This document shows positions 1 through 39,864 of a DNA stretch of 39,864 nucleotides, piece by piece. The position numbers and the translations under genes are program-made. Every line of letters starts with the position of its first letter. The first letter of the stretch is position 1. The stretch spans positions 1 through 39,864 of the IMG/VR virus record IMGVR_UViG_3300045988_044618. The stretch is one strand, 5' to 3'. A model generated the notes under the pieces. That model was given only the letters and a program-made list of their open reading frames with translations, had not been told where the DNA came from and searched no databases. Source of the stretch: a virus.

Positions 1-200
1 GAGACCTGCGCATTGCCGAAGACCTGCGCATCGCCGGAGACCCACGCATTGCCGTCGTGGGAGAGGTTGTCTTCCTTCTCAATAAATCCGCCAAGTTCTC
101 CCTTCTCGACGTCGCAAAAAGCGACGAGAGCCTTAACGCGGAACAGCTTCTTCCCAAAAACGTTCGTTACAAATTCGGCGGTCAGTTCAAATTTCTTCAT
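1..200 (-). CDS. Hexapeptide (GNAxVx) repeat protein, 5' part; continues at 39401..39864 across the circular junction (202 aa total)
   Basis: ATG at 200 follows AAAGGAGG with a 9-nt spacer. Translation is MKKFELTAEFVTNVFGKKLFRVKALVAFCDVEKGELGGFIEKEDNLSHDGNAWVSGDAQVFGNAQVS. The frame is continuous with 39401..39864 once the 55-nt overlap is removed (145+464 nt = 203 codons). It is absent from the ORF track because it runs off the window edge. Confidence 0.8.
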   Translation of the reverse strand, partial: MKKFELTAEFVTNVFGKKLFRVKALVAFCDVEKGELGGFIEKEDNLSHDGNAWVSGDAQVFGNAQV

Positions 201-3647: not shown

Positions 3648-4733
3648 ATGAAAAGGACAAATACTGCAAAATGGATTGAAAGCGCCGGGCGTTGGCAAAT
3701 CAACGTGCAGAAGAACGGAGTGCGCAAGACGTTTACCAGCGCCAAGCCGGGCCGCACAGGCCAGAGGGAAGCTAACAAAAAAGCAGATGAATGGCTTGAC
3801 ATAGGCGTAAAGACGGAACGCATTAAGGTTTCTGACGCATGGGAACAGTTGTTACAGCAGAAAAAACTTGTGTCTGATGCAGAATACAAAAACATGGCAT
3901 CGTTTGGGCGCTCCCATTTGCTGCCAGCCATCGGGGTCAAGTCAGTAAAAGCCGTTACGGAACAGGATTTCCAAAAAATTATAGATTATGCGTTTCGCCA
4001 TCCACAGGGGAACAGCAAAGATCCCTTATCCAAAAAGACGTTACAGAACTATGCCAACTACTGCAAGCAATTTGTGAATTTTTGCCGAAAATCAAAATGG
4101 ACAACGCTTGAGCTTGAAGAGTTACAGATTCCGGCAGCGTCCAGAAAAAAGGGAAAGAACGTTCTGACAGTTGAAGCGCTGAACACACTATTAAAAGTAG
4201 ATACGACCATCATGCGCGGAAAATCTGTGCACGATGAATACATAAATTATTACAGGTTCCAAGTGCTAACAGGTATGCGCCCCGGTGAAATGCGGGGGCT
4301 GCGATGGGAAGACGTTGACGGGAATTTGTGCAGGTTGAAGCAGGCTATCAATGCGCACGGGCAAATCACGAAGGGAAAAAACGAAAACGCTTTGCGCACG
4401 GTCGTGCTATCCAGACGCGCAGTGGACGTGCTGGAAGCTCAGAAAGCCGTAACTGGAAAGCAGGAGTACATCTTCCCCATGGCATCCATGCACACCTACT
4501 ACCACCGCTGGCAGCGCTATCAGCGCTCTAATGACATGCCGGAGCTGAGTCTTTACGAACTGCGCCACACATTTGTTAGCATAGCAAAAGAGTTGCCAAC
4601 GGGCGAGTTAAAGCAGCTTGTCGGGCATAGCAAGGATATGGACACCTACGGCACATACTCTCATCACATCGCCGGAGACGACAAACGGACAGCGCAAAAT
4701 CTACAAGAAATCTTTGACAGACTGGTGGACTAA
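3648..4733 (+). CDS. int: Tyrosine recombinase / phage integrase (361 aa)
   Basis: Catalytic-domain motifs are present: GMRPGEMRGLRWEDV (Arg), LYELRHTFVS (H-x-x-R) and GHSKDMDTYGTYSHH (His/Tyr). The SD is AAAGGAG. attP-like repeats lie immediately downstream. Confidence 0.95.
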   Translation: MKRTNTAKWIESAGRWQINVQKNGVRKTFTSAKPGRTGQREANKKADEWLDIGVKTERIKVSDAWEQLLQQKKLVSDAEYKNMASFGRSHLLPAIGVKSVKAVTEQDFQKIIDYAFRHPQGNSKDPLSKKTLQNYANYCKQFVNFCRKSKWTTLELEELQIPAASRKKGKNVLTVEALNTLLKVDTTIMRGKSVHDEYINYYRFQVLTGMRPGEMRGLRWEDVDGNLCRLKQAINAHGQITKGKNENALRTVVLSRRAVDVLEAQKAVTGKQEYIFPMASMHTYYHRWQRYQRSNDMPELSLYELRHTFVSIAKELPTGELKQLVGHSKDMDTYGTYSHHIAGDDKRTAQNLQEIFDRLVD

Positions 4734-4756
4734 AAGTACACACTAAAAGTACACAC
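4731..4756 (+). repeat. Tandem 13-bp repeat TAAAAGTACACAC x2 (candidate integrase arm-type sites)
   Basis: Two exact adjacent copies start at the int stop codon. The core AGTACAC(A/G) recurs at 4929-4936 and 4941-4949. Confidence 0.6.
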
Positions 4757-4858
4757 TTTTTCTTTTAAATACATGAAATAATATAAAAAGCATGTGATGA
4801 AATAAAAAATATAGCAATATACCGCTATATTTTCAATCACTAAAAGCATAAAGCATAG

Positions 4859-4881
4859 TTCGAGTCCTGTCACCTCGACCA
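4859..4881 (+). other. attP core: 3' end of a tRNA gene (T-loop to CCA)
   Basis: TTCGAGTCCTGTCACCTCGACCA reads as T-loop, T-stem 3' strand, acceptor 3' strand, discriminator and CCA. The matching 5' T-stem is absent upstream, so only the 3' fragment is carried. This is typical of phages that integrate into tRNA genes. Confidence 0.65.
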
Positions 4882-4887
4882 CAACAA

Positions 4888-4927
4888 ATGCCGTAGATTA
4901 GTTTAAATCTACGGCATTTTCTTTTTC
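4888..4927 (+). terminator. Intrinsic terminator after the tRNA fragment
   Basis: An 11-bp stem ATGCCGTAGAT/ATCTACGGCAT is followed by TTTTCTTTTTC. Confidence 0.7.
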
Positions 4928-4928
4928 A

Positions 4929-4949
4929 AGTACACGTTTTAGTACACAC
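4929..4949 (+). repeat. Second pair of AGTACAC(G/A) arm-type-like repeats
   Basis: AGTACACG lies at 4929-4936 and AGTACACAC at 4941-4949. Both have the same orientation as the copies at 4735-4756 and flank the tRNA-derived core. Confidence 0.55.
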
Positions 4950-4953
4950 TTAC

Positions 4954-5091
4954 CTATTTTCTCTGCAAACTGTGTACCAAATCATTATACACATCCGGAC
5001 GTGCTTCTTTCAGCGCATCCATAAACTCATCCAGCACACGCCACACTCGCCCGGTATCGGCCTTTTTTACAATCTCCAAAAATTCACTCAT
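4954..5091 (-). CDS. Small protein (45 aa), paralogous to the C-terminus of the upstream 117-aa protein
   Basis: ATG at 5091 overlaps the upstream stop (ATGA). VWRVLDEFMDALKEARPDVYNDLVHSL resembles AALNVLDELMSALYVANPKVYNGVMRKL of 5084..5437. It is below the ORF-track cutoff. Confidence 0.55.
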   Translation of the reverse strand: MSEFLEIVKKADTGRVWRVLDEFMDALKEARPDVYNDLVHSLQRK

Positions 5092-5437
5092 CCTGTAAAC
5101 GCTCCAATTTCCGCATTACGCCATTATAAACTTTAGGGTTTGCTACATACAAGGCCGACATAAGCTCATCCAGCACGTTCAGCGCTGCTGCGATGTCTAC
5201 GTTTGACACAGCCCGTAAAAAGTCACTGCTGCCAACAGCAGCCCTTGCAGACGGCTCTGCCGCTTCGTAGTAGCGCACAGGCTCTTGCAGTTTTGCTTTC
5301 TGCGGAGAATGGGACGCATCTGCAAGACGCTGATTTTTCACAACATACAGCGCTGCCAAATTTTTAACTCTGGTCATGGTGAGTTCGCTGTTTTCGATTT
5401 CGGCTATAGCGCCGTCAATCTCTCGCACGTCAACCAT
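5084..5437 (-). CDS. Hypothetical protein (117 aa), accessory operon
   Basis: The SD is GTGAGGTG. The protein is predicted helical. It is tightly linked to 5455..5850. Confidence 0.7.
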   Translation of the reverse strand: MVDVREIDGAIAEIENSELTMTRVKNLAALYVVKNQRLADASHSPQKAKLQEPVRYYEAAEPSARAAVGSSDFLRAVSNVDIAAALNVLDELMSALYVANPKVYNGVMRKLERLQDE

Positions 5438-5454
5438 AGCCCTTACACCTCACT

Positions 5455-5850
5455 TTAACCGTTTCGCATCGTGTCAATGCAGCGCTGGATGACTTCCCTG
5501 TCTTTGCTGTCAGCCCCGCGCATAATATCTTCCATGCGGGAAATCAGTGAATCGCGCCCATCGTCCATGCTGTAGTGCCCGCGCACATAATGCGAACCGC
5601 GCCGCGCATAGCTGCTGCCGCGTCCATAATTGCCGCGCATATTGGCGCTCCAATCACCATCGCGGCTGTAATCCTCATCGCGGCTGTAACCGTCATCTTC
5701 CAGCATGACAATTTTGTCGATGTTTTTGATAGTGTCAGTCAGCTTGTGAACAGTTTCCAAGTCACCGGCAGACATTTCACCCTTCTTTCCGATTTCGTCC
5801 AGTTCTGCGCACAGCATGTCTTTCAAGTCATACAAAACTCTTTTACTCAT
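5455..5850 (-). CDS. Hypothetical protein (131 aa) with helical N-domain and Arg/Gly/Tyr/Ser/Asp-rich low-complexity centre
   Basis: The SD is AAAGGAG. The low-complexity centre reads DDGYSRDEDYSRDGDWSANMRGNYGRGSSYARRGSHYVRGHYS. Confidence 0.7.
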   Translation of the reverse strand: MSKRVLYDLKDMLCAELDEIGKKGEMSAGDLETVHKLTDTIKNIDKIVMLEDDGYSRDEDYSRDGDWSANMRGNYGRGSSYARRGSHYVRGHYSMDDGRDSLISRMEDIMRGADSKDREVIQRCIDTMRNG

Positions 5851-5862
5851 GATTTACTCCTT

Positions 5863-6285
5863 TCAGCTCACTCTCTCGACCACAAAGTTTGCGTTCGCAA
5901 ACAAAACGGTTTGTGTGCTTGTATTTTCGGCGGCAACGGTCAGGCAGCAGCCGCGCGGAACTTCAACAAAAGACGTCACATAGATATTAAAGAAGTTTTC
6001 TACTGCTGCCGGTGTCACGGTTGCAGTCGCACTGTTCAGCGGTTCACCGTTGATAGCAAGCGCCGCCGTGATAGCTTCCACTGTGCCGCCTGTAGGGATA
6101 GCAACGTTTGCACCGAAGCCCACTTTGAAACGCGCTTTGCACTGGTTCGTAATGCCGCGCAGCGTAACAATACCGGCGCCTTCTCTGTGTACGACACAGC
6201 CCTTGCCCGCTACTGCCGTTTCCGTCAACGGCACGTTCTGGCCTGCTGCCACGCTCACGGTATTGGCGTTTGTAAATTCAGCCAT
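5863..6285 (-). CDS. Beta-rich 140-aa protein, possibly a TNF/C1q-like (BclA C-terminal-domain-like) fold
   Basis: The SD is GAAAGGAA and there is no signal peptide. It has four Cys (GKGC, NQC, RGCC) and alternating beta-strand-like pattern. The fold assignment is from memory and is unverified. Confidence 0.7.
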   Translation of the reverse strand: MAEFTNANTVSVAAGQNVPLTETAVAGKGCVVHREGAGIVTLRGITNQCKARFKVGFGANVAIPTGGTVEAITAALAINGEPLNSATATVTPAAVENFFNIYVTSFVEVPRGCCLTVAAENTSTQTVLFANANFVVERVS

Positions 6286-6300
6286 AAAATCATTCCTTTC

Positions 6301-6335
6301 AAAAAAAGATAGTGGCGGGACGATTGCCCCGCCAC
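6301..6335 (-). terminator. Intrinsic terminator/attenuator inside the accessory operon
   Basis: On the minus strand: GTGGCGGG-GCAATCGT-CCCGCCAC followed by TATCTTTTTTT. It sits between the 258-aa and 140-aa genes. Confidence 0.6.
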
Positions 6336-6398
6336 ATTTTGCACTATCGGCACGGGGCCGAACATGTCAGATGTTCCGACAAGTTGCCGTATTCATTT

Positions 6399-7175
6399 TT
6401 AGCATCCGCAGCTGTTGCAGGCGCCGCAATTCCCATACTGATACGGTGCGGGAACAGGGAAAGCCGGAACAGGGCGGGGGTTGTAGTAAGCAAGCTGCCC
6501 GCTCATATAGGCTTTCAGCGTTTCATTCTGCGCGGCCTGACTTGCGGCAAGCTGTGCAGCGAAAAGCTGCTGGTTCTGCTCGGCAATCTTGGCATCTTTA
6601 GCCTCAATGCGCTGCGCCGTCAGTGCGTCAAGCACAGCGCGGGCGTTCGCGTTCTGGTTTTCGATGATGTCCCGAGTGCCGTTCTGAATGGTCTGGCGCG
6701 TGTCGCAAGCCTGCGTAGCGAGGTTGTAGTTTACGCCCTGGATAGCCTCGCGGGTCTCGCAGCAGCAATTCGCCTGCTGCATCTGCATGGCGTTGAGCTG
6801 CTGCATAAATGCCGCCTGCTGATTGGCGCGGCTGATTTCGGCGCTCATAAAGCCCTGCTGCATAGCGTTCTGCACACCGTTGACAAGCTGTGCCTGAGCA
6901 TAGAAGCCGTCACACAGACCGTTGTTCACGACGTCGATTTTGCGTTCGATGTTGGCAAAGTCGCTGGTGAGGATGTAACCATCGACAGCGCCAGCACCAT
7001 TACCGCCGCCAAAGCCGTTGTTGCCCCAGTTGCCGCCCCAGCCGCAGAAAACGAAGAGGAAGAGAATGATAATCCACCACGCACCATCGCCGCCAAAGCC
7101 CCAGCCGTTGCCATTGCCCGTATTCGCGGGCTGAACAGGCATTGTCATAACAGTGCCGTCCGAAGAAAGACTCAT
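6399..7175 (-). CDS. Gly/Asn/Gln-rich membrane-anchored protein with Cys-rich C-terminus (258 aa)
   Basis: The SD is AAAGGAG. The N-terminus is GNGNGWGFGGDGAWWIIILFLFVFCGWGGNWGNNGFGGGNG, a Gly-rich flanked TM segment. A long Q/N/A-rich region contains QQANCCCETRE. The C-terminus is YQYGNCGACNSCGC. Confidence 0.8.
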   Translation of the reverse strand: MSLSSDGTVMTMPVQPANTGNGNGWGFGGDGAWWIIILFLFVFCGWGGNWGNNGFGGGNGAGAVDGYILTSDFANIERKIDVVNNGLCDGFYAQAQLVNGVQNAMQQGFMSAEISRANQQAAFMQQLNAMQMQQANCCCETREAIQGVNYNLATQACDTRQTIQNGTRDIIENQNANARAVLDALTAQRIEAKDAKIAEQNQQLFAAQLAASQAAQNETLKAYMSGQLAYYNPRPVPAFPVPAPYQYGNCGACNSCGC

Positions 7176-7229
7176 GTTTAACTCCTTTCAAAAGTTGAAT
7201 GTATTGTTCACCGTGCGCACGGGTTGAAC

Positions 7230-7448
7230 CTATTTTAAAAAGCTCTGAAACTGCTGCGCCATCGCTTGAAGCTGATTTAGCTGCTGCTGGCTCATTTTGC
7301 CAGATTGCAGCAACTTTTGAACTTCTTGTTTCGGGTCGCCTTGAAAATCCTGTCGGAACTGCTGAAACTGCTGCATCATTTGCTGAAATTGTCCCATTGC
7401 GCCCGGCATTTTGCCGCCGCTAAGAGCGTTAAACAGAGGGTTGCTCAT
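7230..7448 (-). CDS. Gln-rich small protein (72 aa)
   Basis: The SD is AAGGAGG. Sequence: MSNPLFNALSGGKMPGAMGQFQQMMQQFQQFRQDFQGDPKQEVQKLLQSGKMSQQQLNQLQAMAQQFQSFLK. Confidence 0.75.
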   Translation of the reverse strand: MSNPLFNALSGGKMPGAMGQFQQMMQQFQQFRQDFQGDPKQEVQKLLQSGKMSQQQLNQLQAMAQQFQSFLK

Positions 7449-7899
7449 TGTCTGCCTCCTTTTTCTTGCGCGTCAAAGGTTTATCTGCCGCCAGCGCGTC
7501 AAAGCGGGCTGTCAACGCGTTGAACTCTTGCCGTGTGACATATTCCTCTTTCGGTTTTTGCGCGGTCTGTGCTGGCTGTTTCTGGCTTGCCGTGCGTTCC
7601 GAGTAGTCAAAAACGCGCAATGGCTGAGGCATACCGCTGGCGTCGGTGGCCTTAATGTAAAATGTACTGTTTTCGCTGTCCATCAGCAGTACGCTGTTCC
7701 CTGCCGCCACCATATACGCTTTGGCTCCCTCTTCGCCTTGCACCCAGATAATAGGCGAGCTTTGCTGTGCCGGTTGCTGCTGCGGATATGCCGCCTGTCG
7801 GAGCTGTGCGAGTTGATCGGGCATGGCCGACGGCATCTGCTGCCCCATTGGATAATATCCCGGTGCGAATCCAGGTTGATACGGTACGCCAAACGCCAT
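7429..7899 (-). CDS. Pro/Gln/Tyr-rich N-terminus plus small beta domain protein (156 aa from ATG 7899)
   Basis: The track ORF starts at TTG 7905. ATG 7899 follows AAAGGA. The core is IIWVQGEEGAKAYMVAAGNSVLLMDSENSTFYIKATDASGMPQPLRVFDY. Confidence 0.75.
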   Translation of the reverse strand: MAFGVPYQPGFAPGYYPMGQQMPSAMPDQLAQLRQAAYPQQQPAQQSSPIIWVQGEEGAKAYMVAAGNSVLLMDSENSTFYIKATDASGMPQPLRVFDYSERTASQKQPAQTAQKPKEEYVTRQEFNALTARFDALAADKPLTRKKKEADNEQPSV

Positions 7900-7905
7900 A
7901 GTCAA

Positions 7906-8280
7906 TCATCCTTTCTGCCAGTAGTACAGCGGCACTTCATCTCCGCTGTCCCATGTATCCAGCCAATCCCCATTTTGCACGCACACAACATGCGTCGCCA
8001 TTGCCAAAATATAAGTGCCGTCCGGTTGGTCTTTTGCAAACTGCGCCACTGTGTAACAGTCCGGGCAACTGTTCGGAATTGCCGAACGGTTCCACCCGCA
8101 CCGCCGAAGATAGTGGCCCCAAACATAGTTTGCAGACGGCATATCATGCAGTTCAAATCCTGCCAGCACCAGCGCCGCATATACAGCCTCCCACGATTGA
8201 TGTGTTGCGGCTGCAATGGCTCTGACGGTGCAATCGCCAACGCGCTTTTGCTCTGGGTTCAAGTTTAATTCTCTGTACAT
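7906..8280 (-). CDS. Putative papain-like (C39-like) cysteine peptidase-fold protein (124 aa)
   Basis: The SD is AGAGGA. It has a Cys/His/Asp pattern: GDCTVRAI ... MATHVVCV ... DTWDSG. It is the first gene of the accessory operon. The fold call is inferred from the motif pattern only. Confidence 0.6.
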   Translation of the reverse strand: MYRELNLNPEQKRVGDCTVRAIAAATHQSWEAVYAALVLAGFELHDMPSANYVWGHYLRRCGWNRSAIPNSCPDCYTVAQFAKDQPDGTYILAMATHVVCVQNGDWLDTWDSGDEVPLYYWQKG

Positions 8281-8338
8281 GGTTTTATCCTCTATATTTA
8301 TTGTAATATTTTACACATTTTCGCGTGCGCCACATCTG

Positions 8339-8371
8339 CGCCAACTTTACGCCAACTTTACGCCAACTTTT
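8339..8371 (+). repeat. Tandem repeat CGCCAACTTTA x3 (11-bp period)
   Basis: Copies lie at 8339-8349, 8350-8360 and 8361-8371 (the last base differs). The array sits 24 bp upstream of the -35 of the consensus promoter. Confidence 0.8.
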
Positions 8372-8394
8372 TTATAAAAATCCCGCAATTCCAC

Positions 8395-8423
8395 TTGACA
8401 TTACTACGCTAGCGTAGTATAAT
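8395..8423 (+). promoter_or_regulatory. Consensus sigma-70 promoter with 18-bp palindromic operator
   Basis: TTGACA (8395-8400), 17-nt spacer, TATAAT (8418-8423). The perfect palindrome TACTACGCTAGCGTAGTA (8402-8419) fills the spacer. Confidence 0.8.
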
Positions 8424-8467: not shown

Positions 8468-8827
8468 ATGAGTAAGCTCGATTTTAGCGACGCCATCTAT
8501 AAACAGACCCACGTCCGCATTGACAACAACGCCCTCATCGACGACATCCGCAAGGCCATCAGCACCAGCGAAATGGAGAACGACGAGCGCCAGCGCATCA
8601 CCGGACAGGATGATGTCATGGAGCGCTGGGAGTACCTCGTCGACTTCCACCGGGACGAGATTCTCGACGACGACGGCGAACTTCTGCAGGTCACTGACAC
8701 CGTGAAGGTCATCGAGATCACCATTTACCCGCGCAGCCGTAACTCCGTCTTTGTCCGCGCCGGATTCCCTGTCAATGAGGACATCTTCGTTGAGCTTCCC
8801 GCCGACGCCGACAGCTTTGAAATCTAA
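8468..8827 (+). CDS. Small highly acidic protein (119 aa; 28 Asp+Glu vs 13 Lys+Arg)
   Basis: The SD is GAAAGGAA. It lies on the plus strand, opposite to the flanking operons, and is the first gene after the consensus promoter. I recognise no motif. Confidence 0.75.
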   Translation: MSKLDFSDAIYKQTHVRIDNNALIDDIRKAISTSEMENDERQRITGQDDVMERWEYLVDFHRDEILDDDGELLQVTDTVKVIEITIYPRSRNSVFVRAGFPVNEDIFVELPADADSFEI

Positions 8828-8840
8828 AAGGAGGCCATCT

Positions 8841-9329
8841 GTGGAAATTTCCCTAAAGGAATACGCCGCCCGGCATAGCCGCGCCGCGGCGACTGTCCGC
8901 CAAAAGGCCATCCGTGGCGGATTTAAGACCGCTCGCCGCGTTGGCCGTGACTGGCTCATTGATGAAGATGAACCCTACATTGACGAGCGCTTTGCCATGC
9001 TTTCCACGCCGCCAGACCTGTGGCTTTTGACAAACGGCAGGCACAGCCGCACCATCAGCGACGCCGGCGCCGTCAAAATCGGCAGCGACGAATTCTCCGC
9101 TCTTATTCCAACCGGCGCGGGTGACGGCGAATCTGCCTACTGCATCTATACGCGGGCAGAGCTGGACGCCGTCGGCATCAACACCGCCGACCTTCACTAC
9201 TTCACCCTTGTTTCCGGCAGCTTCAACATCTACGACTACGACTGCGGGTGCACCGTATCGGAGACTGTAAAAGGAATCTTCAACGTTTTCTATGCGGACG
9301 GTATCGTCTTTTTTGTAAAAGCCGAATAA
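8841..9329 (+). CDS. Excisionase/MerR-like HTH (HTH_17-type) N-domain protein with unknown C-domain (162 aa from GTG 8841)
   Basis: AAAGGAGG, 6 nt, then GTG. The N-terminus is ISLKEYAARHSRAAATVRQKAIRGGFKTARRVGRDWLI. The longer track ORF (8751) overlaps the upstream gene and lacks an SD. Confidence 0.7.
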   Translation: MEISLKEYAARHSRAAATVRQKAIRGGFKTARRVGRDWLIDEDEPYIDERFAMLSTPPDLWLLTNGRHSRTISDAGAVKIGSDEFSALIPTGAGDGESAYCIYTRAELDAVGINTADLHYFTLVSGSFNIYDYDCGCTVSETVKGIFNVFYADGIVFFVKAE

Positions 9330-9332
9330 AAT

Positions 9333-9385
9333 AAAAAAGCGCCCCTCCAGTGTCCACCATGGACACAATGAGGGGCGCTTTTTAT
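9333..9385. terminator. Bidirectional intrinsic terminator
   Basis: AAAAAAGCGCCCCTC ... GAGGGGCGCTTTTT with an inner GTGTCCA/TGGACAC hairpin. It lies between the convergent genes 8841..9329(+) and 9382..9552(-). Confidence 0.8.
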
Positions 9386-9552
9386 TCAGCCTTCAACTTC
9401 CCAACAATCGCCTTTACCCGTCTGTTTACCGTCCGTTCACTCAAATTCAGTTCTGCCGCAATATCAGCATTGCGCCAGCCGCGCCGCCGAAGCTGCAAAA
9501 CATCCGTTTCTTCATCGGTCAGCAAACCGCCGACAAAATCAAACTTTGGCAT
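9382..9552 (-). CDS. LuxR/GerE-type (sigma-70 region 4-like) HTH protein (56 aa)
   Basis: Sequence: MPKFDFVGGLLTDEETDVLQLRRRGWRNADIAAELNLSERTVNRRVKAIVGKLKAE. The ATG lies 2 nt after the holin stop. It is below the ORF-track cutoff. Confidence 0.7.
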   Translation of the reverse strand: MPKFDFVGGLLTDEETDVLQLRRRGWRNADIAAELNLSERTVNRRVKAIVGKLKAE

Positions 9553-9749: not shown

Positions 9750-9765
9750 TGATATGCACTCCCTT

Positions 9766-10119
9766 TCAGCCGATCAGATGATTTTGCAAGGCTTCCTTTG
9801 CTTTCTGCATCTGGTCAATGTTGTTCCCATCCAGATTGTGGTCAAGCAGGGCCAGCAATGCCTGCATGGTCACATGCTGCCCCTCGTCCATGCGGTCAAG
9901 CCGCTGCTTGTCGTTTTTCAAGAATCCCTCCATGACATTCACCCGCGTTTCGAGCTGTGTGATGCGTTTGTCCTGGTCGGCTTTCGGCTTTTTTATGGCA
10001 GTGATGACTTTGCTGATGGCAACGCCCCCAGCATACAGTCCGGCGGCAGCGCCCGCCGCGTAAATTAAAAACGCCCAGGCCTCCGCAAGCGTAAACGAAA
10101 ATACGTGCTGCATAGGCAT
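9766..10119 (-). CDS. Membrane-anchored coiled-coil protein of the lysis cassette (about 117 aa)
   Basis: The N-terminal TM segment is AWAFLIYAAGAAAGLYAGGVAI, followed by a helical region. It lies between the endolysin and the holin. The start overlaps the endolysin stop (GTGTGATG). Confidence 0.65.
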   Translation of the reverse strand: MPMQHVFSFTLAEAWAFLIYAAGAAAGLYAGGVAISKVITAIKKPKADQDKRITQLETRVNVMEGFLKNDKQRLDRMDEGQHVTMQALLALLDHNLDGNNIDQMQKAKEALQNHLIG

Positions 10120-11261
10120 CACACCTCCACAAATTTAGCGTGATACGCCTTGTCGTTGTCCAGACCGTACTTCTTGGCGATGAGGTAGAACTCCATCGCC
10201 GCAGCGTTCGGCAGGACGACGTGATCCAGCCAGACTTCCTGATGCGTCGGCGCGGCGGGCTTGTCCTCTTTGATGGCGGCATCGTACCGTGTCAGGTTGA
10301 ACTGCTTTACGACAGCCAGCAGACTTGCGGTATACGTCGGACTGGTTGCCCAGCCATCAGCCCGGATGTACTCGCACGCCTTGTTGATGTCGGTACAGCC
10401 GACCAGATTGGAATAGCGCGGCATGGTCGTCAGCTTTTTGATGTAGTCCTCGACGCAGGCGACCATCGTATCGTAGGCGCGGAAGCCCGCCGTGATGGTG
10501 ATGTACTTGCTGCCGTCCCACTCCTTCGTAGCCTTGTTGTACACTCTGCCGCTCCAATTGCTGGCCTTGATGCCGAACAGGTTGTTTGCCTGTACTGCAA
10601 GCTCGCTCGTGCCGTAGGCGCTCTCCAAGCAAGCCTGAGCAATGCAGAGGGACGGGAGAAGATGCGCATTCAGGCAGCGGCTCTGGCACTTCTCGGCCAT
10701 GACGTCAATGAACGTTTGCTCTTTCGTCTTGGCGGGCGCCGCGTCTGCCACGTCGCCCTTCAAGCGCTTCGTGACCTGTGCCGCAATGTCGGGGAACTTG
10801 CTCTTGAGATAGGGGCCGGGGCAGGCGGTAGCCGCGTAGAAGCAGTGCATCGTGAGCGAGCCGTTCTTGTCGCCGGTGTAGGTCAGTTCCTTGATGCCGT
10901 TGCGGCGGCAAATGTCGGTGCAAAGGTCGAGCAGGGCGGCATACGCCTTGTCGCTGACGTGCCAGTCCGGTGCGCTGCTGTCGTTAGCGACTTCGATAGT
11001 AATGGCCCGCTGGTCGTTCCACGGGCTGGAACTGCACCACGACCTGTCCGCCTCGTGGCAGAACAGCCCGATACGCCCGCCGGATTCGATGGCGTAGTTT
11101 GCGCTCATCTGGCGTGAGGGCCTACTGACAAGAGCGCCGAAAGATTCAAGCGTCATGTTGCCAGCCATGTGATGAACTGTAATCTTGCTGATGGGCTGGC
11201 TCCGGGGCCGGTTGCAGTTTGGGCTGATGGCCGTGTAAACGGCCAGTGCAGAATCACTCAT
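10119..11261 (-). CDS. Bifunctional endolysin: N-acetylmuramoyl-L-alanine amidase (Amidase_2/PGRP-type) + glucosaminidase domain (380 aa)
   Basis: Amidase_2 motif: ITVHHMAGN ... SANYAI ... RSWCSS ... NDQRAITIEVAN. Glucosaminidase motif: LPSLCIAQACLESAYGTSELAVQANNLFGIKA. Confidence 0.9.
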   Translation of the reverse strand: MSDSALAVYTAISPNCNRPRSQPISKITVHHMAGNMTLESFGALVSRPSRQMSANYAIESGGRIGLFCHEADRSWCSSSPWNDQRAITIEVANDSSAPDWHVSDKAYAALLDLCTDICRRNGIKELTYTGDKNGSLTMHCFYAATACPGPYLKSKFPDIAAQVTKRLKGDVADAAPAKTKEQTFIDVMAEKCQSRCLNAHLLPSLCIAQACLESAYGTSELAVQANNLFGIKASNWSGRVYNKATKEWDGSKYITITAGFRAYDTMVACVEDYIKKLTTMPRYSNLVGCTDINKACEYIRADGWATSPTYTASLLAVVKQFNLTRYDAAIKEDKPAAPTHQEVWLDHVVLPNAAAMEFYLIAKKYGLDNDKAYHAKFVEV

Positions 11262-30204: not shown

Positions 30205-30660
30205 TTATATCCCCCAAAACCCCTTTGCGCCGGAGGAAAAGCGCGTTCCCGCCCTACCGGTCTCTGCTATGCCGGTCTCACCCGTTGCGGTGAGCAAATC
30301 CGCAACGTAGTTCAGCAGCACTTGTATTCCGCGCGCTTACCCGCGGTCTCTGCTTTGATGTTATGGGTTCCGGCGATGCGTAACTGCGTCAGTAACGTAG
30401 TCCGCACAAGCAGATGCCGAACGGTTTTCTCGATGTCACCGTCTAAACGTCCCCGAACTTCTCCGCTTTCAAAATCGGTGTGCAATCGGGTATGCGCCCT
30501 GTCGTATAGGGCTATGCACCGTCGATCTTCCGAGGTGTCGGTTATCTATCGCGTTTCCTACGCCGGGCTTTCACCGGTGGGAGCGACCCAGCACGTGCCC
30601 TCAGCCGGACTTGAACCGGCACACCAAGGCTCTTGCCATTGAGCTACAAGGGCATGTGCG
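30205..30660 (-). ncRNA. Candidate large structured non-coding RNA (~450 nt) beginning with a tRNA-like element
   Basis: There is no credible ORF on either strand. The region is GC-rich with many hairpins. A possible long-range helix pairs 30581-30574 with 30260-30252. GCAGAGACCG and ACTACGTT motifs are each duplicated. The region is bounded by a tRNA and a terminator. Confidence 0.5.
30596..30653 (-). ncRNA. tRNA-like element lacking an anticodon arm
   Basis: It has an acceptor-like stem GCCCTTG/TGAGGGC, a D-arm GCTC-AATGGCAA-GAGC and a T-arm GCCGG-TTCAAGT-CCGGC. Only 8 nt (CTTGGTGT) link the D and T arms. There is no CCA. The stem extends to 13 bp (30659..30591). Confidence 0.6.
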
Positions 30661-30741: not shown

Positions 30742-30815
30742 TGGCGCGGGTGGAAGGTCTTGACCCCTCATCTTGCGGTTTTGGATACCGCAGTTCTGCA
30801 TTGAACTACACCCGC
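30742..30815 (-). tRNA. tRNA-Trp (anticodon CCA), 74 nt with encoded CCA
   Basis: It has a perfect 7-bp acceptor stem GCGGGTG/CACCCGC, discriminator G and anticodon arm GCGGT-ATCCAAA-ACCGC. The D-loop (AATGCA) lacks GG and the T-loop is GTCAAGA. Confidence 0.75.
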
Positions 30816-32275: not shown

Positions 32276-32900
32276 TTTCTTTCCCCTCTCTTTCTTCTAC
32301 ATACGCCATGTTCTGGCGCAGATTGAGCGATTTCGGATTGAGAATACAAGCAGGGACGACAGCGCAGCTGGCGCGCGCATTGCTGCTGCGAAACTGACCA
32401 TCCGTCCCCACATAGCGAACGTCGTATGCGTAGCCCGTGTCAAAATTCTTATCTCCGCAATACCAAGGCGTGGCAGTCCAAATCCGGCTGTCGTAACGCG
32501 GGATGTAGTCACGGTACTTGCGGTACTCGTCACAGGTCAGGATAAAAACAAAGTCCTGTACAGTGCCATAAGCTCTGTCACCGTTGTCGGCTACAAGGTC
32601 AACGGCATGCAGCAGCAGACTTTTTCTCTCGAAAACACTGTTCGCCATATCAGATAGAATCCCCCGCACATTACTGGTGCGGTAGTTATTCATATTGCCC
32701 TTTTCGTCGGCAAAAATACAACTTTGGCAGAACTTTTTATCGGTAAATATATCACTTGGGCAGAATTTTACATCTTTTGCCCACGACTTTGCCATAATAG
32801 CCAGTACGCCGCCGTCAGGGTGGTTCGGGTCAAGGCAGACCCACTCAAAGCCCTTAAACATAAAGTGTTCGCCAGGACGCAGGGCTGTGATGTTAGTCAT
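32262..32900 (-). CDS. Hypothetical protein (212 aa)
   Basis: This is a long ORF in the operon. I assign no confident family. Confidence 0.65.
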   Translation of the reverse strand: MTNITALRPGEHFMFKGFEWVCLDPNHPDGGVLAIMAKSWAKDVKFCPSDIFTDKKFCQSCIFADEKGNMNNYRTSNVRGILSDMANSVFERKSLLLHAVDLVADNGDRAYGTVQDFVFILTCDEYRKYRDYIPRYDSRIWTATPWYCGDKNFDTGYAYDVRYVGTDGQFRSSNARASCAVVPACILNPKSLNLRQNMAYVEEREGKENETD

Positions 32901-36487: not shown

Positions 36488-37140
36488 TCAATCCACTTCC
36501 TTTCCGGCGGGGCCGTCTGCTGGCGGCTGCGCTCCCATGTGCGCACTACGGCTTTCCAGTCTTTCATTTGGTTCTTGCCTATCTTCCAGCCCTTGCTTAT
36601 GTAGAAGTCGCAAAACTCATTGCCATCAATGCCGTTGTTTCGTTCCCGGCAATAGGCGTTGACTTCTTCAGGCGTAGGGGGAACAAACCGCTTTGAAACG
36701 GACACACCCCCGTCCCCCTGTGGGGGATTATAGGGGGTATTCTTAACTTCTTTATTCTTCTTTATATAAGGGTCTGTGCCCTCACTGTGCCCTCTCTGTG
36801 CCCTCTGTTTGCCATCGTCCGTGCCCGTGCATTGATAGTCGTTGTAGTTATTTACCGTGAATACGCTAAATTTTACACACGGCAACTGTGCCACTTCCTG
36901 TGTCTCTTTTAGGTGGTTTATTGCAGTGCGAACTTGTTTGACTGTTAATCCGGTGTCGGTTGCAATTTGACGGATAGAGGAAACTGCCTGACCGGGTTCT
37001 AATTGGACGCCTTTGTAGTAGCACGGCTCATAGCAAGCCAGAAACAGCAAGTGCAGAAACACGCATTTTGTGGGGGTATCGGTATACCAGCCCCACTTCA
37101 TCATGCGGCGGTACAGCTTTATGTAACCCTCGTTTTCCAT
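36484..37140 (-). CDS. Phage replisome organizer / DnaD-domain replication protein (218 aa)
   Basis: The N-terminus is YIKLYRRMMKWGWYTDTPTKCVFLHLLFLA and the C-terminus is FCDFYISKGWKIGKNQMKDWKAVVRTWE. Confidence 0.75.
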   Translation of the reverse strand: MENEGYIKLYRRMMKWGWYTDTPTKCVFLHLLFLACYEPCYYKGVQLEPGQAVSSIRQIATDTGLTVKQVRTAINHLKETQEVAQLPCVKFSVFTVNNYNDYQCTGTDDGKQRAQRGHSEGTDPYIKKNKEVKNTPYNPPQGDGGVSVSKRFVPPTPEEVNAYCRERNNGIDGNEFCDFYISKGWKIGKNQMKDWKAVVRTWERSRQQTAPPERKWID

Positions 37141-39404: not shown

Positions 39405-39864
39405 TCGGACACCTCATGATTTTCTTTTTCATCAGAAAAATGCAGCTCCATCAAGTCGGCAATCGCGAGGTACTCTTTAGCGTATTTGCTGCCGCCGTGG
39501 GTTTTCTTGACGATTTCGCGGAACTGCGCTAAATCACCATAAAAGCAACCGCACTGTATGCGGATAATTTTATCCTTGCAGCGGAAAAATGTGGTCGCGC
39601 GGAAATAACGGCCAAAGCCTGTAACGACGGCAAAGTCTGCATCGCCGTAGACCCACGCATTGCCGGAGACCTGCGCATTGCCGTAGACCCACGCATTGCC
39701 GGAGACCTGCGCATTGCCGTAGACCCGCGCATTGCCGTAGACCCACGCATTGCCGGAGACCTGCGCATTGCCGGAGACCCACGCATCGCCGTAGACCCAC
39801 GCATCGCCGGAGACCTGCGCATTGCCGAAGACCTGCGCATCGCCGGAGACCCACGCATTGCCGT
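39401..39864 (-). CDS. Hexapeptide (GNAxVx) repeat protein, 3' part (repeats + C-terminal domain); the 5' part is at 1..200
   Basis: The frame ending at TGA 39403-39401 reads ...GNAWVYGNAQVSGNAWVYGDADFAVVTGFGRYFRATTFFRCKDKIIRIQCGCFYGDLAQFREIVKKTHGGSKYAKEYLAIADLMELHFSDEKENHEVSE. The two track ORFs here (MRGSPAMRRS..., MGLRRCAGLR...) are the wrong frames of the same repeat. Confidence 0.8.
   Translation of the reverse strand, partial: GNAWVSGDAQVFGNAQVSGDAWVYGDAWVSGNAQVSGNAWVYGNARVYGNAQVSGNAWVYGNAQVSGNAWVYGDADFAVVTGFGRYFRATTFFRCKDKIIRIQCGCFYGDLAQFREIVKKTHGGSKYAKEYLAIADLMELHFSDEKENHEVSE
39647..39862 (-). repeat. Twelve tandem 18-bp units encoding G-[ND]-A-x-V-x hexapeptides
   Basis: The units are GGCAATGCGTGGGTCTAC / GGCAATGCGCAGGTCTCC and variants. 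The unit containing GAAGAC (GDAQVF) occurs only once per genome copy. Confidence 0.95.

Follow-up and report, generated by a model that had tools for sequence, protein, structure and literature searches.

A portable accessory gene cassette in phages of gut and rumen Firmicutes encodes a predicted papain-like enzyme, a BclA-fold protein, and low-complexity proteins

Here, we describe a gene cassette on the minus strand of the virus record IMGVR_UViG_3300045988_044618, the whole of which (39,864 nucleotides [nt]) is referred to as the window. Its eight genes, numbered g1 to g8 along the minus strand from position 8280 down to 4954, belong to a self-contained, horizontally portable cassette carried by siphophages of gut and rumen Firmicutes. 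The conserved core is g2-g3-g4-g5-g6, usually with a helix-turn-helix (HTH) gene in front and g1 along, and one lineage adds g7 (and g8). We are highly confident of the following points taken together: the genes make up a genuine and portable accessory unit, the core g2 to g6 is structural and not enzymatic, g1 is an enzyme, and g5 has a TNF/BclA-type fold. For the mechanism as a whole, we tentatively favor a late-lytic structural role. An earlier note, made from the DNA letters alone, had taken the genes for an operon in a lysogenic-conversion position that encodes a cell-surface, spore-surface, or secreted system; the cassette is probably not the lysogen or spore-surface module proposed there.

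The unity of the cassette was assessed by iterated profile searches on the open reading frames (ORFs) of 85 diverse loci, with approximate ORF starts. The g4 family was present in all 85 loci, followed by g2 (78), g5 (64), g1 (61), g6 (59), the HTH gene (53), g3 (41), and g7 (29). The earlier note had suggested asking whether the set recurs elsewhere, and in this survey the genes form one recurring unit outside this phage. The HTH homologue lies just upstream of the cassette in its 53 loci and also in Butyrivibrio virus Ceridwen and Dulem virus 39. Three gene orders were distinguished (types A, B, and C; Table 1), and g7 was seen in type A loci only (29 of 29), plus Ceridwen (E value, 9e-33). 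Between these orders g1 swaps from the front of the cassette to the back yet stays with the core, which indicates a functional tie and not merely a historical one.

In Dulem virus 33 and MT835551, distant-mode DNA search and tblastn recovered g1 to g7 in the same order, at 33 to 80% amino acid identity, although the integrase and endolysin of both are nonhomologous to those of the window. Because synteny is conserved across unrelated phages, the cluster is more than a chance arrangement. Where g3 or g5 is missing, its slot is filled by what are, judged by sequence, analogous proteins, here called g3' and g5'. HNH/NUMOD-type homing endonucleases have also been inserted repeatedly within the cassette in different phages, between g3 and g4, g2 and g4, g4 and g5, and g5 and g6 (locus L001, positions 9752 to 10303; L172, 24928 to 25722; and L094, L097, L128, L145, L157, and L160).

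The cassette is widely distributed. A degenerate-pattern scan derived from the g4 alignment found 250 stretches in species-representative genomes of gut Clostridia, Erysipelotrichia, and Bacilli, namely, Oscillospiraceae, Lachnospiraceae, Ruminococcus, Christensenellales, Erysipelotrichaceae, and Bacilli bins; isolates among them were Acutalibacter, Muriventricola, Lachnospira, and Enterocloster. The host names of metagenome-assembled genomes include obvious misbinnings, such as Collinsella, Akkermansia, and Alloprevotella. The exact proteins of the window were found on hundreds to more than 1,000 contigs, mostly assigned to Gemmiger formicilis or Caudoviricetes.

In the window itself, a six-frame ORF listing confirmed the eight minus-strand ORFs of the earlier note, and all eight exact products are already in public gene calls. 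The tight coupling described there was also found, with spacings from g1 to g8 of +6, -20, +54, +113, +12, +17, and -8 nt, as were all the motifs quoted: GDCTVRAI, THVVCV, and DTWDSG in g1; MSNPLFNALSGG in g3; and the Gly-flanked hydrophobic segment, CCC, and C-terminal GNCGACNSCGC in g4. Gln accounts for 7.8% of the cassette proteins, compared with 3.8% in 6010 residues of the window's other phage proteins, and peaks at 27.8% in g3. A membrane-grade hydrophobic stretch is carried by g4 alone (Kyte-Doolittle 17-residue mean of 2.0, residues 32 to 48), and neither hydropathy nor direct reading of the sequences revealed an N-terminal hydrophobic leader in any cassette protein except g4.

As the earlier note had stated, none of the eight proteins matches a known function: Pfam, NCBIfam, and PADLOC scans of all eight returned chance-level matches at most, with 0 PADLOC-DB families at an E value of ≤1. 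Each of g1 to g6 matches a PHROG labeled "unknown function," with E values from 5e-9 (g6) to 2e-57 (g5); g7 and g8 have no significant PHROG match. In public sources the cassette proteins are named "hypothetical protein" throughout, and literature searches on phage-borne BclA/exosporium genes, YjcZ, and Gemmiger prophages yielded nothing on the cassette. The core proteins carry no enzyme signature and look structural, with g4 as an anchor, g5 as a jelly roll, and g2, g3, and g6 as low-complexity partners. We counted toward this structural character the conserved cysteines of g4, g5, and g1, the compositional bias, and the position of g4 as the sole hydrophobic member. The secondary structure of g2, g3, g4, g6, and g7 was read from sequence.

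The hallmark protein of the cassette is g4 (phrog_16490; E value, 7e-55). Its hydrophobic N-terminal segment (residues 32 to 48) is flanked by Gly and Trp and followed by a Gln/Asn-rich region that is a probable coiled coil. Along the protein, the motifs run GLCDG, CCCxT..AI.GVNYN, TRDI..NQ, LAASQ..QN, P.PA..VP.P, and terminal GCGC, and in a four-way alignment reaching down to 41% identity, the cysteines C88 (in GLCDG), C137 to C139, C157, C256, and C258 are invariant. The family is large and uniform: at least 8000 clusters at 90% identity, all 250 to 290 amino acids (aa) long, and at 50% identity 762 clusters with E values of ≤1e-10, all 240 to 290 aa. These clusters carry neither a Pfam domain nor a name. 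Matches to topoisomerase I in the PDB sequence search were rejected as coiled-coil noise. The comparison with YjcZ-type sporulation peptides that the earlier note had drawn for the Gly-rich hydrophobic protein failed, as no YjcZ model matched and the resemblance is compositional only.

The second landmark is g5 (phrog_20016; E value, 2e-57), whose homologues form 7032 clusters at 90% identity and in which G112-C113-C114 is invariant. An AlphaFold2 (AF2) model built from 32 homologues is all-beta with eleven strands (predicted local distance difference test [pLDDT], 78.7; predicted template modeling score [pTM], 0.74) and conforms to a ten-strand jelly roll superposable on the C-terminal domain of BclA (BclA-CTD) and on ExsF. 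In Foldseek, it matched the F-BclA tip (9h38), BclA-CTD (1wck and 2z5w), ExsFA (7r1m), and EDA with E values of 1e-6 to 5e-5 and TM scores of 0.65 to 0.73; the probability was 1.00 for 9h38, 1wck, 2z5w, and 7r1m. ExsFA 9h3d, TNF ligands, a cyanophage tail-fiber domain, the phi812 spike knob, and the BC2L-C lectin were also listed. At the sequence level, the window g5 had no BclA_C (PF18573) match in Pfam at an E value of ≤1, a PDB sequence search with g5 itself gave nothing credible, the g5 profile found no BclA among PDB sequences, and the homologue from Dulem virus 35 reached BclA_C below threshold (30.3 bits against a cutoff of 38; E value, 4e-7). The resemblance to TNF/C1q-like BclA domains that the earlier note had sensed therefore stands at the level of the fold, by AF2 and Foldseek, and not as family membership by sequence; the model supports g5 as a jelly roll of the BclA-CTD/ExsF/TNF/C1q type.

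In some lineages, the g5 slot is filled by g5', a family of 130 to 145 aa with an N-terminal CxxxCxxC, more cysteines, a beta-rich core, and a Pro/Thr tail (L154, 9124 to 9525; L134, 1942 to 2361; L123, 8730 to 9113; L084, 7734 to 8150; L162, 8954 to 9349; and others). Profile and per-member scans gave no PDB, Pfam, or PHROG match for g5', and hhalign detected no relationship between it and g5 (probability, 0.5%). The idea that g5' is an endospore appendage (Ena) protein was rejected, there being no match of any kind.

The fold of g5 raises the question of whether the cassette remodels the spore coat or exosporium, with leaderless Cys/Gln/Tyr-rich proteins laid on the spore from the mother cell under GerE-like control and g1 acting as a transglutaminase-like cross-linker. 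The nearest solved folds to g5 are indeed the exosporium proteins F-BclA, BclA, and ExsFA, and the regulator is a stand-alone GerE-family HTH. Leaderless, Cys-rich, low-complexity proteins are typical of the spore coat and exosporium, and many hosts are Clostridia, including the Acutalibacter and Enterocloster isolates. The protein chemistry thus fits the spore-surface claim of the earlier note, but the hosts do not: they include Gemmiger formicilis and Butyrivibrio fibrisolvens, both described as non-spore-forming, as well as reduced-genome Bacilli, "Mollicutes," and Erysipelotrichaceae bins. Furthermore, the cassette resides in the lytic phage Ceridwen, g5 is just 13 to 15% identical to BclA/ExsF, and neither g4 nor any other cassette protein matched a spore coat or sporulation family of NCBIfam or Pfam, YjcZ and GerQ models included, beyond chance at an E value of ≤1. 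We consider a role in sporulation quite unlikely.

The same fold would suit a virion accessory, in which g5 and its partners are a nonessential decoration, fiber, or adhesin on the capsid or tail that moves between phages. TNF/C1q/BclA-like knobs are common as receptor- or glycan-binding tips, and the Foldseek list of g5 includes such phage and lectin domains. In addition, the cassette is co-oriented with late genes everywhere, and in Dulem virus 35 and a prophage of Enterocloster hominis (L162) it adjoins scaffold and capsid genes. However, the hallmark protein g4 is of membrane type and the partners are of low complexity; the lysis block usually separates the cassette from the structural genes; the cassette has its own regulator; and some lineages swap g5 for the unrelated Cys-rich beta protein g5'. 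A virion component is an unlikely explanation.

The only protein with an enzyme-like layout is g1 (phrog_3754; E value, 9e-29). Among 36 diverse homologues, D16, C17, R20, L58, H97, G104, and D108 are invariant, and C17, H97, and D108 remain so among 62. In the AF2 model (pLDDT, 95.2; pTM, 0.89), Cys17 opens a helix, and His97 and Asp108 lie on neighboring strands, so that Cys, His, and Asp follow in order on a papain-like scaffold. Modeled in this way, g1 looks like a minimal papain-like Cys-His-Asp enzyme with Cys17, His97, and Asp108 as its predicted catalytic residues and Asn6 and Asn8 as possible oxyanion residues. Against PDB structures, Foldseek gave no significant match; the best was Josephin-2 (E value, 0.15; TM score, 0.44), and the weaker ones after it (Tae4, the USP-like deubiquitinase TssM, and PaTox) are all papain-like. 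No Pfam, NCBIfam, or PDB sequence match was obtained for g1, with its profile included, and a per-member Pfam scan showed nothing recurrent. The earlier note had called this protein papain/C39-like; the papain-like Cys-His-Asp layout was borne out, whereas a match to C39 or to another clan CA family was not.

A search of predicted viral structures (BFVD) with the g1 model gave 22 matches below 1e-3, all uncharacterized proteins from phages of many phyla, including phages of Pseudomonas, Enterococcus, Sphingomonas, and Cellulophaga; the entries labeled "Peptidase C39" (a phage protein; E value, 1e-2 only) and Josephin were weak. The homologues amount to 3438 clusters. Solitary homologues were detected by tblastn in Bacillus Tsamsa-like phages and Geobacillus GBK2 (36 to 41% identity) and in Lak megaphages (27% identity); those of the Tsamsa-like phages are annotated "putative peptidase" in a few cases and "hypothetical protein" in most. 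On the modeled fold, g1 and its relatives make up a family of minimal papain-like enzymes that is found across phages.

The low-complexity partners have their own conserved blocks. g2 (phrog_21718; E value, 1e-34) consists of a Pro/Gln/Tyr-rich head, a conserved block of ~50 aa (V53, K83, and G89), a YVT..E helix or coil, and a charged tail; neither its profile nor its members matched the PDB or Pfam. A GerQ-like identity for g2, suggested by a Gln-rich N terminus followed by a beta domain, was rejected, as no NCBIfam or Pfam GerQ model matched. g3 (phrog_22984; E value, 1e-22) has a conserved NPLF..LGG start and a GDP..V..LL.SG..SQ.QLNQ core. Its stand-in in other lineages, g3', is 70 to 80 aa long, Met/Gln/Asn-rich, and built on an NP repeat.

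A protease, a membrane-type protein, and a Gln-rich peptide side by side could also form a conflict system (abortive-infection defense, anti-defense, or bacteriocin-like), in which g1 would activate or process the membrane-active g4 or a Gly-Gly leader of g3. In line with this, a Cys-His-Asp enzyme is found beside a Gly-zipper-like membrane protein, g3 opens with MSNPLFNALSGG, and the cassette occupies a hot-spot site typical of phage-borne defense genes. However, PADLOC matches none of the proteins, and neither a C39 nor an ABC transporter signature is present: no C39 model matched g1, and there is no transporter gene at any surveyed locus. The Gly-Gly processing that the earlier note had offered as weak speculation also failed, as the GG of the window g3 is missing from Ceridwen g3 (…FNQYGQN…) and from the g3' family. 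The makeup and number of the nonenzymatic partners are unlike known defense systems, and g1 is absent or separable from the core. We regard a conflict system as very unlikely.

The remaining proteins lie at the distal end. g6 (phrog_28802; E value, 5e-9) has an Arg/Gly/Tyr/Ser/Asp low-complexity core between conserved N- and C-terminal segments that look helical, and its exact sequence occurs on at least 1000 public contigs. In some type B cassettes, the place of g6 is taken by a longer Arg/Asp/Tyr-rich protein (L122, 4146 to 4751; L125, 9196 to 9771; L161, 10620 to 11300); the C-terminal domain of this protein (…W..M.N.DGT.G.H…Y.E.E…SDY) is conserved, and it has no PHROG match. g7 is probably helical and ends in the module SDFL..V....A..V(M/L)DELM..L...NP..Y..VM.KL. 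The paralogy between g7 and g8 that the earlier note had noticed is real, g8 being 44% identical to g7 residues 71 to 113 (E value, 1e-10); the exact g8 sequence occurs on at least 1000 contigs.

The control of the cassette was analyzed next to that of its neighbors. The 56-aa HTH protein, encoded outside the region that the earlier note had covered, passes the Pfam GerE model (PF00196) with 40.2 bits against a cutoff of 23.5 (E value, 2.6e-10), matches Sigma70_r4 (E value, 1.1e-6), and matches sigma factor and HTH families among the PHROGs; its sequence makes it a candidate cassette regulator. The earlier note had assigned the cassette its own divergent control region, and this region was recovered, with repeats and a -10-like element leftward (Table 1) and a perfect TTGACA-17-TATAAT promoter rightward at 8395 to 8423. 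The leftward promoter-like element has no -35, and the three 11-bp repeats, which occur nowhere else in the window, lie by count at about -38 to -70, a position that suggests an activator-type layout. The uniqueness of the repeats and the nearby HTH gene were counted for dedicated control. The HTH protein is unlikely to be the general late activator here, given that the window has no AAAGTTGGCG repeats elsewhere.

Close relatives carry two to three or degenerate repeat copies with the same core, ...TGGCGCAC..GAAA.TG.GTAAAATATTACAAT. In other lineages, a palindrome or hairpin replaces the direct repeats, and a hairpin with a T-run precedes a TGnGATAAT-like motif. A strict T-run plus extended -10 pattern was found in 8 of 73 unique upstream regions, compared with 0.7% of random windows, while a coding sequence abuts the first cassette gene in approximately one-quarter to one-third of them (by eye). 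A universal cassette promoter was rejected, given that the strict pattern is confined to these 8 of 73 regions and many loci lack intergenic space. By sequence, the cassette appears to be sometimes its own transcription unit and sometimes part of a late operon. An internal terminator had also been predicted, and a hairpin with a T-run does lie in the 113-nt gap between g4 and g5; in relatives, this gap is often 100 to 1000 nt long and at times holds a small helical ORF or a homing endonuclease.

The window also carries a plus-strand insert with two ORFs (8468 to 8827, 119 aa; 8751 to 9329, 192 aa), wedged in after the HTH gene and ahead of the promoter of the cassette. The insert (8468 to 9329), whose own sigma-70 promoter is the perfect one at 8395 to 8423, is present in just 6 to 9 of 82 close relatives, and its ORFs have no Pfam, PADLOC, or PHROG match. 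From its sequence context, it looks like a separate, recently gained moron.

The flanks of the cassette are as the earlier note had described them, with lysis genes, among them one for a 64-aa holin-like protein, on one side and the integrase and att site on the other. A comparable arrangement was found in Gemmiger prophages, where the tail genes are followed, in this order, by endolysin, holin, GerE-HTH, terminator, cassette, prophage end, and host rnf genes. This location is what would be expected of a lysogenic-conversion moron, expressed from its own sigma-A-type promoter in the repressed prophage with the HTH protein as the switch, in which g4 would alter the envelope (e.g., by superinfection exclusion or changed surface properties). 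The site between the lysis genes and attP/int is shared by the window, Dulem virus 33, and the Gemmiger prophages; in many lineages, the HTH gene is followed by a terminator and then by extended -10-like motifs, ~16-fold over background; a terminator closes the cassette; and the Gemmiger prophage proteins are very prevalent in metagenomes.

However, several phages weaken this reading. The cultured Butyrivibrio virus Ceridwen holds the HTH gene, g1 to g7, and the DUF7365 protein of the lysis block (hidden Markov model E values, 6e-15 to 2e-51), although it has no annotated integrase, carries every gene on one strand, and has shown only lytic growth in vitro. In Dulem virus 35 and the E. hominis prophage (L162), the cassette lies between a MuF-like head gene and the scaffold/major-capsid genes, co-oriented with them, and its place in Dulem virus 39 is within the replication genes, after an integrase gene. 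The cassette of Dulem virus 33 is operon-continuous with the lysis genes: from the endolysin via the HTH gene into g1, each ORF overlaps or adjoins the next, with no long gap. Moreover, six of the seven proteins have no export signal, which would be odd for surface conversion, and PADLOC gives no match. The lysogenic-conversion claim of the earlier note is therefore right about the slot between the lysis genes and attP and weakened as a reading of function; we regard a moron as a somewhat unlikely explanation, less so than the other alternatives. Ceridwen, the head-gene clusters, and the replication-gene sites favor a late-lytic structural role over lysogenic conversion, and the homing endonuclease insertions were also counted for a lytic rather than a lysogenic role.

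In the late-lytic structural role, the cassette proteins would be produced late in the lytic program, in the cytoplasm of the infected cell, by read-through from the lysis genes or from their own promoter under the adjacent HTH protein. This protein is proposed to bind the 11-bp direct repeats and switch the unit on. The subunits would then assemble on the g4 membrane anchor into a non-virion assembly, possibly cross-linked through cysteines, with g1 trimming or cross-linking one partner. The assembly would act at the cell envelope, at or after lysis, and its outcome might be egress, a shield or adhesin for the progeny, or exclusion.

Several points weigh against this mechanism. The lysis genes and the cassette are divided by a terminator and a separate promoter-like element in the window and in many of its relatives, and these also mark a moron expressed from a repressed prophage; conversion modules classically occupy the site, between lysin and att/int, where the cassette is usually found. 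Ceridwen, which has kept an XRE/antirepressor pair, may be a temperate phage that decayed only recently. The solitary homologues of g1 in unrelated phages mean that g1 may do a separate job. In addition, if the structure is built once the holin has been expressed, the time left for it to act is short, unless its action follows lysis.

A more specific form of the late-lytic role is a portable "coat-building" cassette, carried by tailed phages of strictly anaerobic gut Firmicutes, that makes a very late, membrane-anchored, exosporium-like layer or matrix independent of sporulation, from a BclA/ExsF-fold subunit, a Cys-rich anchor, prion-like adaptors, and a papain-like finishing enzyme. We consider this specific combination improbable; some new non-virion structure is likelier than this particular coat or matrix. 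If it were true, contact of the lysate with oxygen would cause the conserved cysteines to cross-link, so that progeny or cell ghosts would be shielded or tethered in fecal-oral transit, and the layer would be a bacterial-virus counterpart of occlusion bodies or the spore surface.

With thousands of phages carrying it, the cassette ranks among the most widespread uncharacterized gene sets in phages of human-gut Clostridia. Selection on it is clearly strong, in an ecosystem in which very little is known of the accessory functions of phages. Building blocks that resemble those of the spore surface are joined in it with a papain-like enzyme from a new, phage-wide family. Should it build a non-virion structure, this would be a new departure in the biology of tailed phages; should it instead be a conversion module, it would very commonly modify abundant commensals such as Gemmiger. 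In fact, Butyrivibrio fibrisolvens DSM 3071 and Ceridwen are a cultured host-phage pair with the whole cassette, which makes the proposal directly testable.

Other features of the window and its relatives are as follows (Table 1). The neighboring endolysin varies by phage and may be of Amidase_2+Glucosaminidase, PGRP, C39-like, or M23 type. The membrane-anchored DUF7365 protein travels with the lysis genes and, in type C loci, lies within the cassette between g1 and the HTH gene; it has homologues at L172 (20017 to 20379), L084 (5345 to 5632), and L162 (6384 to 6830) and a weak PHROG "holin" match (E value, 1e-5), and it may belong functionally to the cassette. In several lineages, g1 or g2 is directly preceded by a small ORF that is absent from the window and has the motif RLI.AG(I/M).P..A...V.W(Y/F)..QG.D..LE.Y(V/I).E.E (L001, 11357 to 11506; upstream ORFs of L119, L141, L150, L092, and L130). 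Around the tRNA fragment of the att core, 13-bp direct repeats ACTAAAAGTACAC (2.2 copies) and more GTGTACT copies were found (4729 to 4757 and about 4925 to 4950); their placement on either side of the attP core makes them probable arm-type sites of the integrase.

Both ends of the window (2 to 54 and 39639 to 39863) carry an 18-bp unit (GCATTGCCGGAGACC..C; 12.5 copies, with a 54-bp superperiod), which suggests that the window represents a phage contig, either circularly closed or with terminal redundancy, whose ends come from a cut within a repeat array. An Rfam D12-methyl RNA (RF02950) match on the minus strand (30244 to 30307; 89.1 bits against a gathering threshold of 57) adjoins a tRNA-Trp (30742 to 30815) and a second tRNA-like match (30596 to 30653). 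Tandem repeats in the early/replication part, of 33 bp (2.3 copies; 32700 to 32774) and 11 bp (4.8 copies; 36773 to 36826), may be origin or operator arrays.

Table 1. Features of the cassette and its surroundings in the window, and gene orders of the surveyed loci
Feature	Position	Strand	Description
Integrase	3648-4733	+	
tRNA 3'-end fragment	4858-4881		24 nt, GTTCGAGTCCTGTCACCTCGACCA, att core
Closing hairpin	4886-4919	-	Strong, 14 bp; precedes att core and integrase
g8	4954-5091	-	45 aa
g7	5084-5437	-	117 aa
g6	5455-5850	-	131 aa
g5	5863-6285	-	140 aa
Terminator-like hairpin	6312-6335	-	10 bp, 8 GC pairs, plus T-run; 25 nt upstream of g5 start; fold z = -3.2
g4	6399-7175	-	258 aa
g3	7230-7448	-	72 aa
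g2	7429-7899	-	156 aa from ATG; 158 aa from upstream TTG
g1	7906-8280	-	124 aa
Control region	8281-8394	-	Three exact 11-bp direct repeats AAAGTTGGCGT (8339-8370), then TGGCGCAC, -10-like TGTGTAAAAT (8308-8317), ribosome-binding site, g1 ATG at 8280
HTH protein, GerE/LuxR-type (sigma-70 region 4-like)	9382-9552	-	56 aa; last gene of lysis block
Membrane-anchored coiled-coil protein	9766-10122	-	Pfam DUF7365 (unknown function)
Endolysin	10119-11261		Amidase_2 + Glucosaminidase
Type A gene order			HTH-g1-g2-g3-g4-g5-g6-g7
Type B gene order			HTH-g2-(g3')-g4-g5-g6-g1
Type C gene order			g1-(DUF7365 membrane-anchored coiled-coil protein)-HTH-g2-g3-g4-g5-g6

The nearest known systems each match one part or aspect of the cassette, and no described system matches the ensemble. 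Morons and conversion modules between lysin and attP are known, for example, from Sfi21-like streptococcal phages and toxin-carrying prophages. The cassette resembles phage morons in its slot in the window, its own control region and terminator, its dispensability for virion architecture, and its mobility between unrelated phages. It differs in having seven to eight coevolving genes and a dedicated regulator, compared with one or two genes, and mostly leaderless proteins. It also differs in occurring in a lytic, integrase-less phage, in head clusters, and among replication genes and in being fused into the late operon in some phages.

At the level of single proteins, g5 shares its all-beta jelly-roll fold and its size with BclA, ExsFA (BxpB), and F-BclA of the Bacillus cereus group and, like ExsFA, is a stand-alone domain of ~140 aa without a signal peptide. 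Apart from the low identity given above, it differs from BclA/ExsF in lacking a collagen-like stalk and an exosporium-targeting N terminus and is instead encoded by phages whose hosts include non-spore-formers. g1 is similar to clan CA peptidases (C39, Josephin/USP, and NlpC/P60-Tae4) in the Cys..His..Asp order, the helix/strand placement, and the invariant upstream Asn, and it differs from them in its smaller size (124 aa) and the lack of a significant family match; the Bacillus transglutaminase Tgl may be named as a functional analogue.

The control of the cassette recalls stand-alone GerE/LuxR HTHs and lambda CII-style activators, the latter of which bind direct repeats at the -35 region. 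The GerE-passing HTH protein, the missing -35, and the three direct repeats of 11-bp period at about -38 to -70 agree with this comparison, whereas other lineages have a palindrome or hairpin, and the HTH protein might repress or serve the lysis genes. For the coat-building reading, a functional analogy may be drawn with the very late occlusion genes of baculoviruses (polyhedrin, p10, polyhedron-envelope protein, and v-cath). There is no sequence or fold relationship, and the analogy serves purely as a model for that reading; in it, both sets would join non-virion structural proteins to a papain-like protease, made after the structural genes and acting around lysis.

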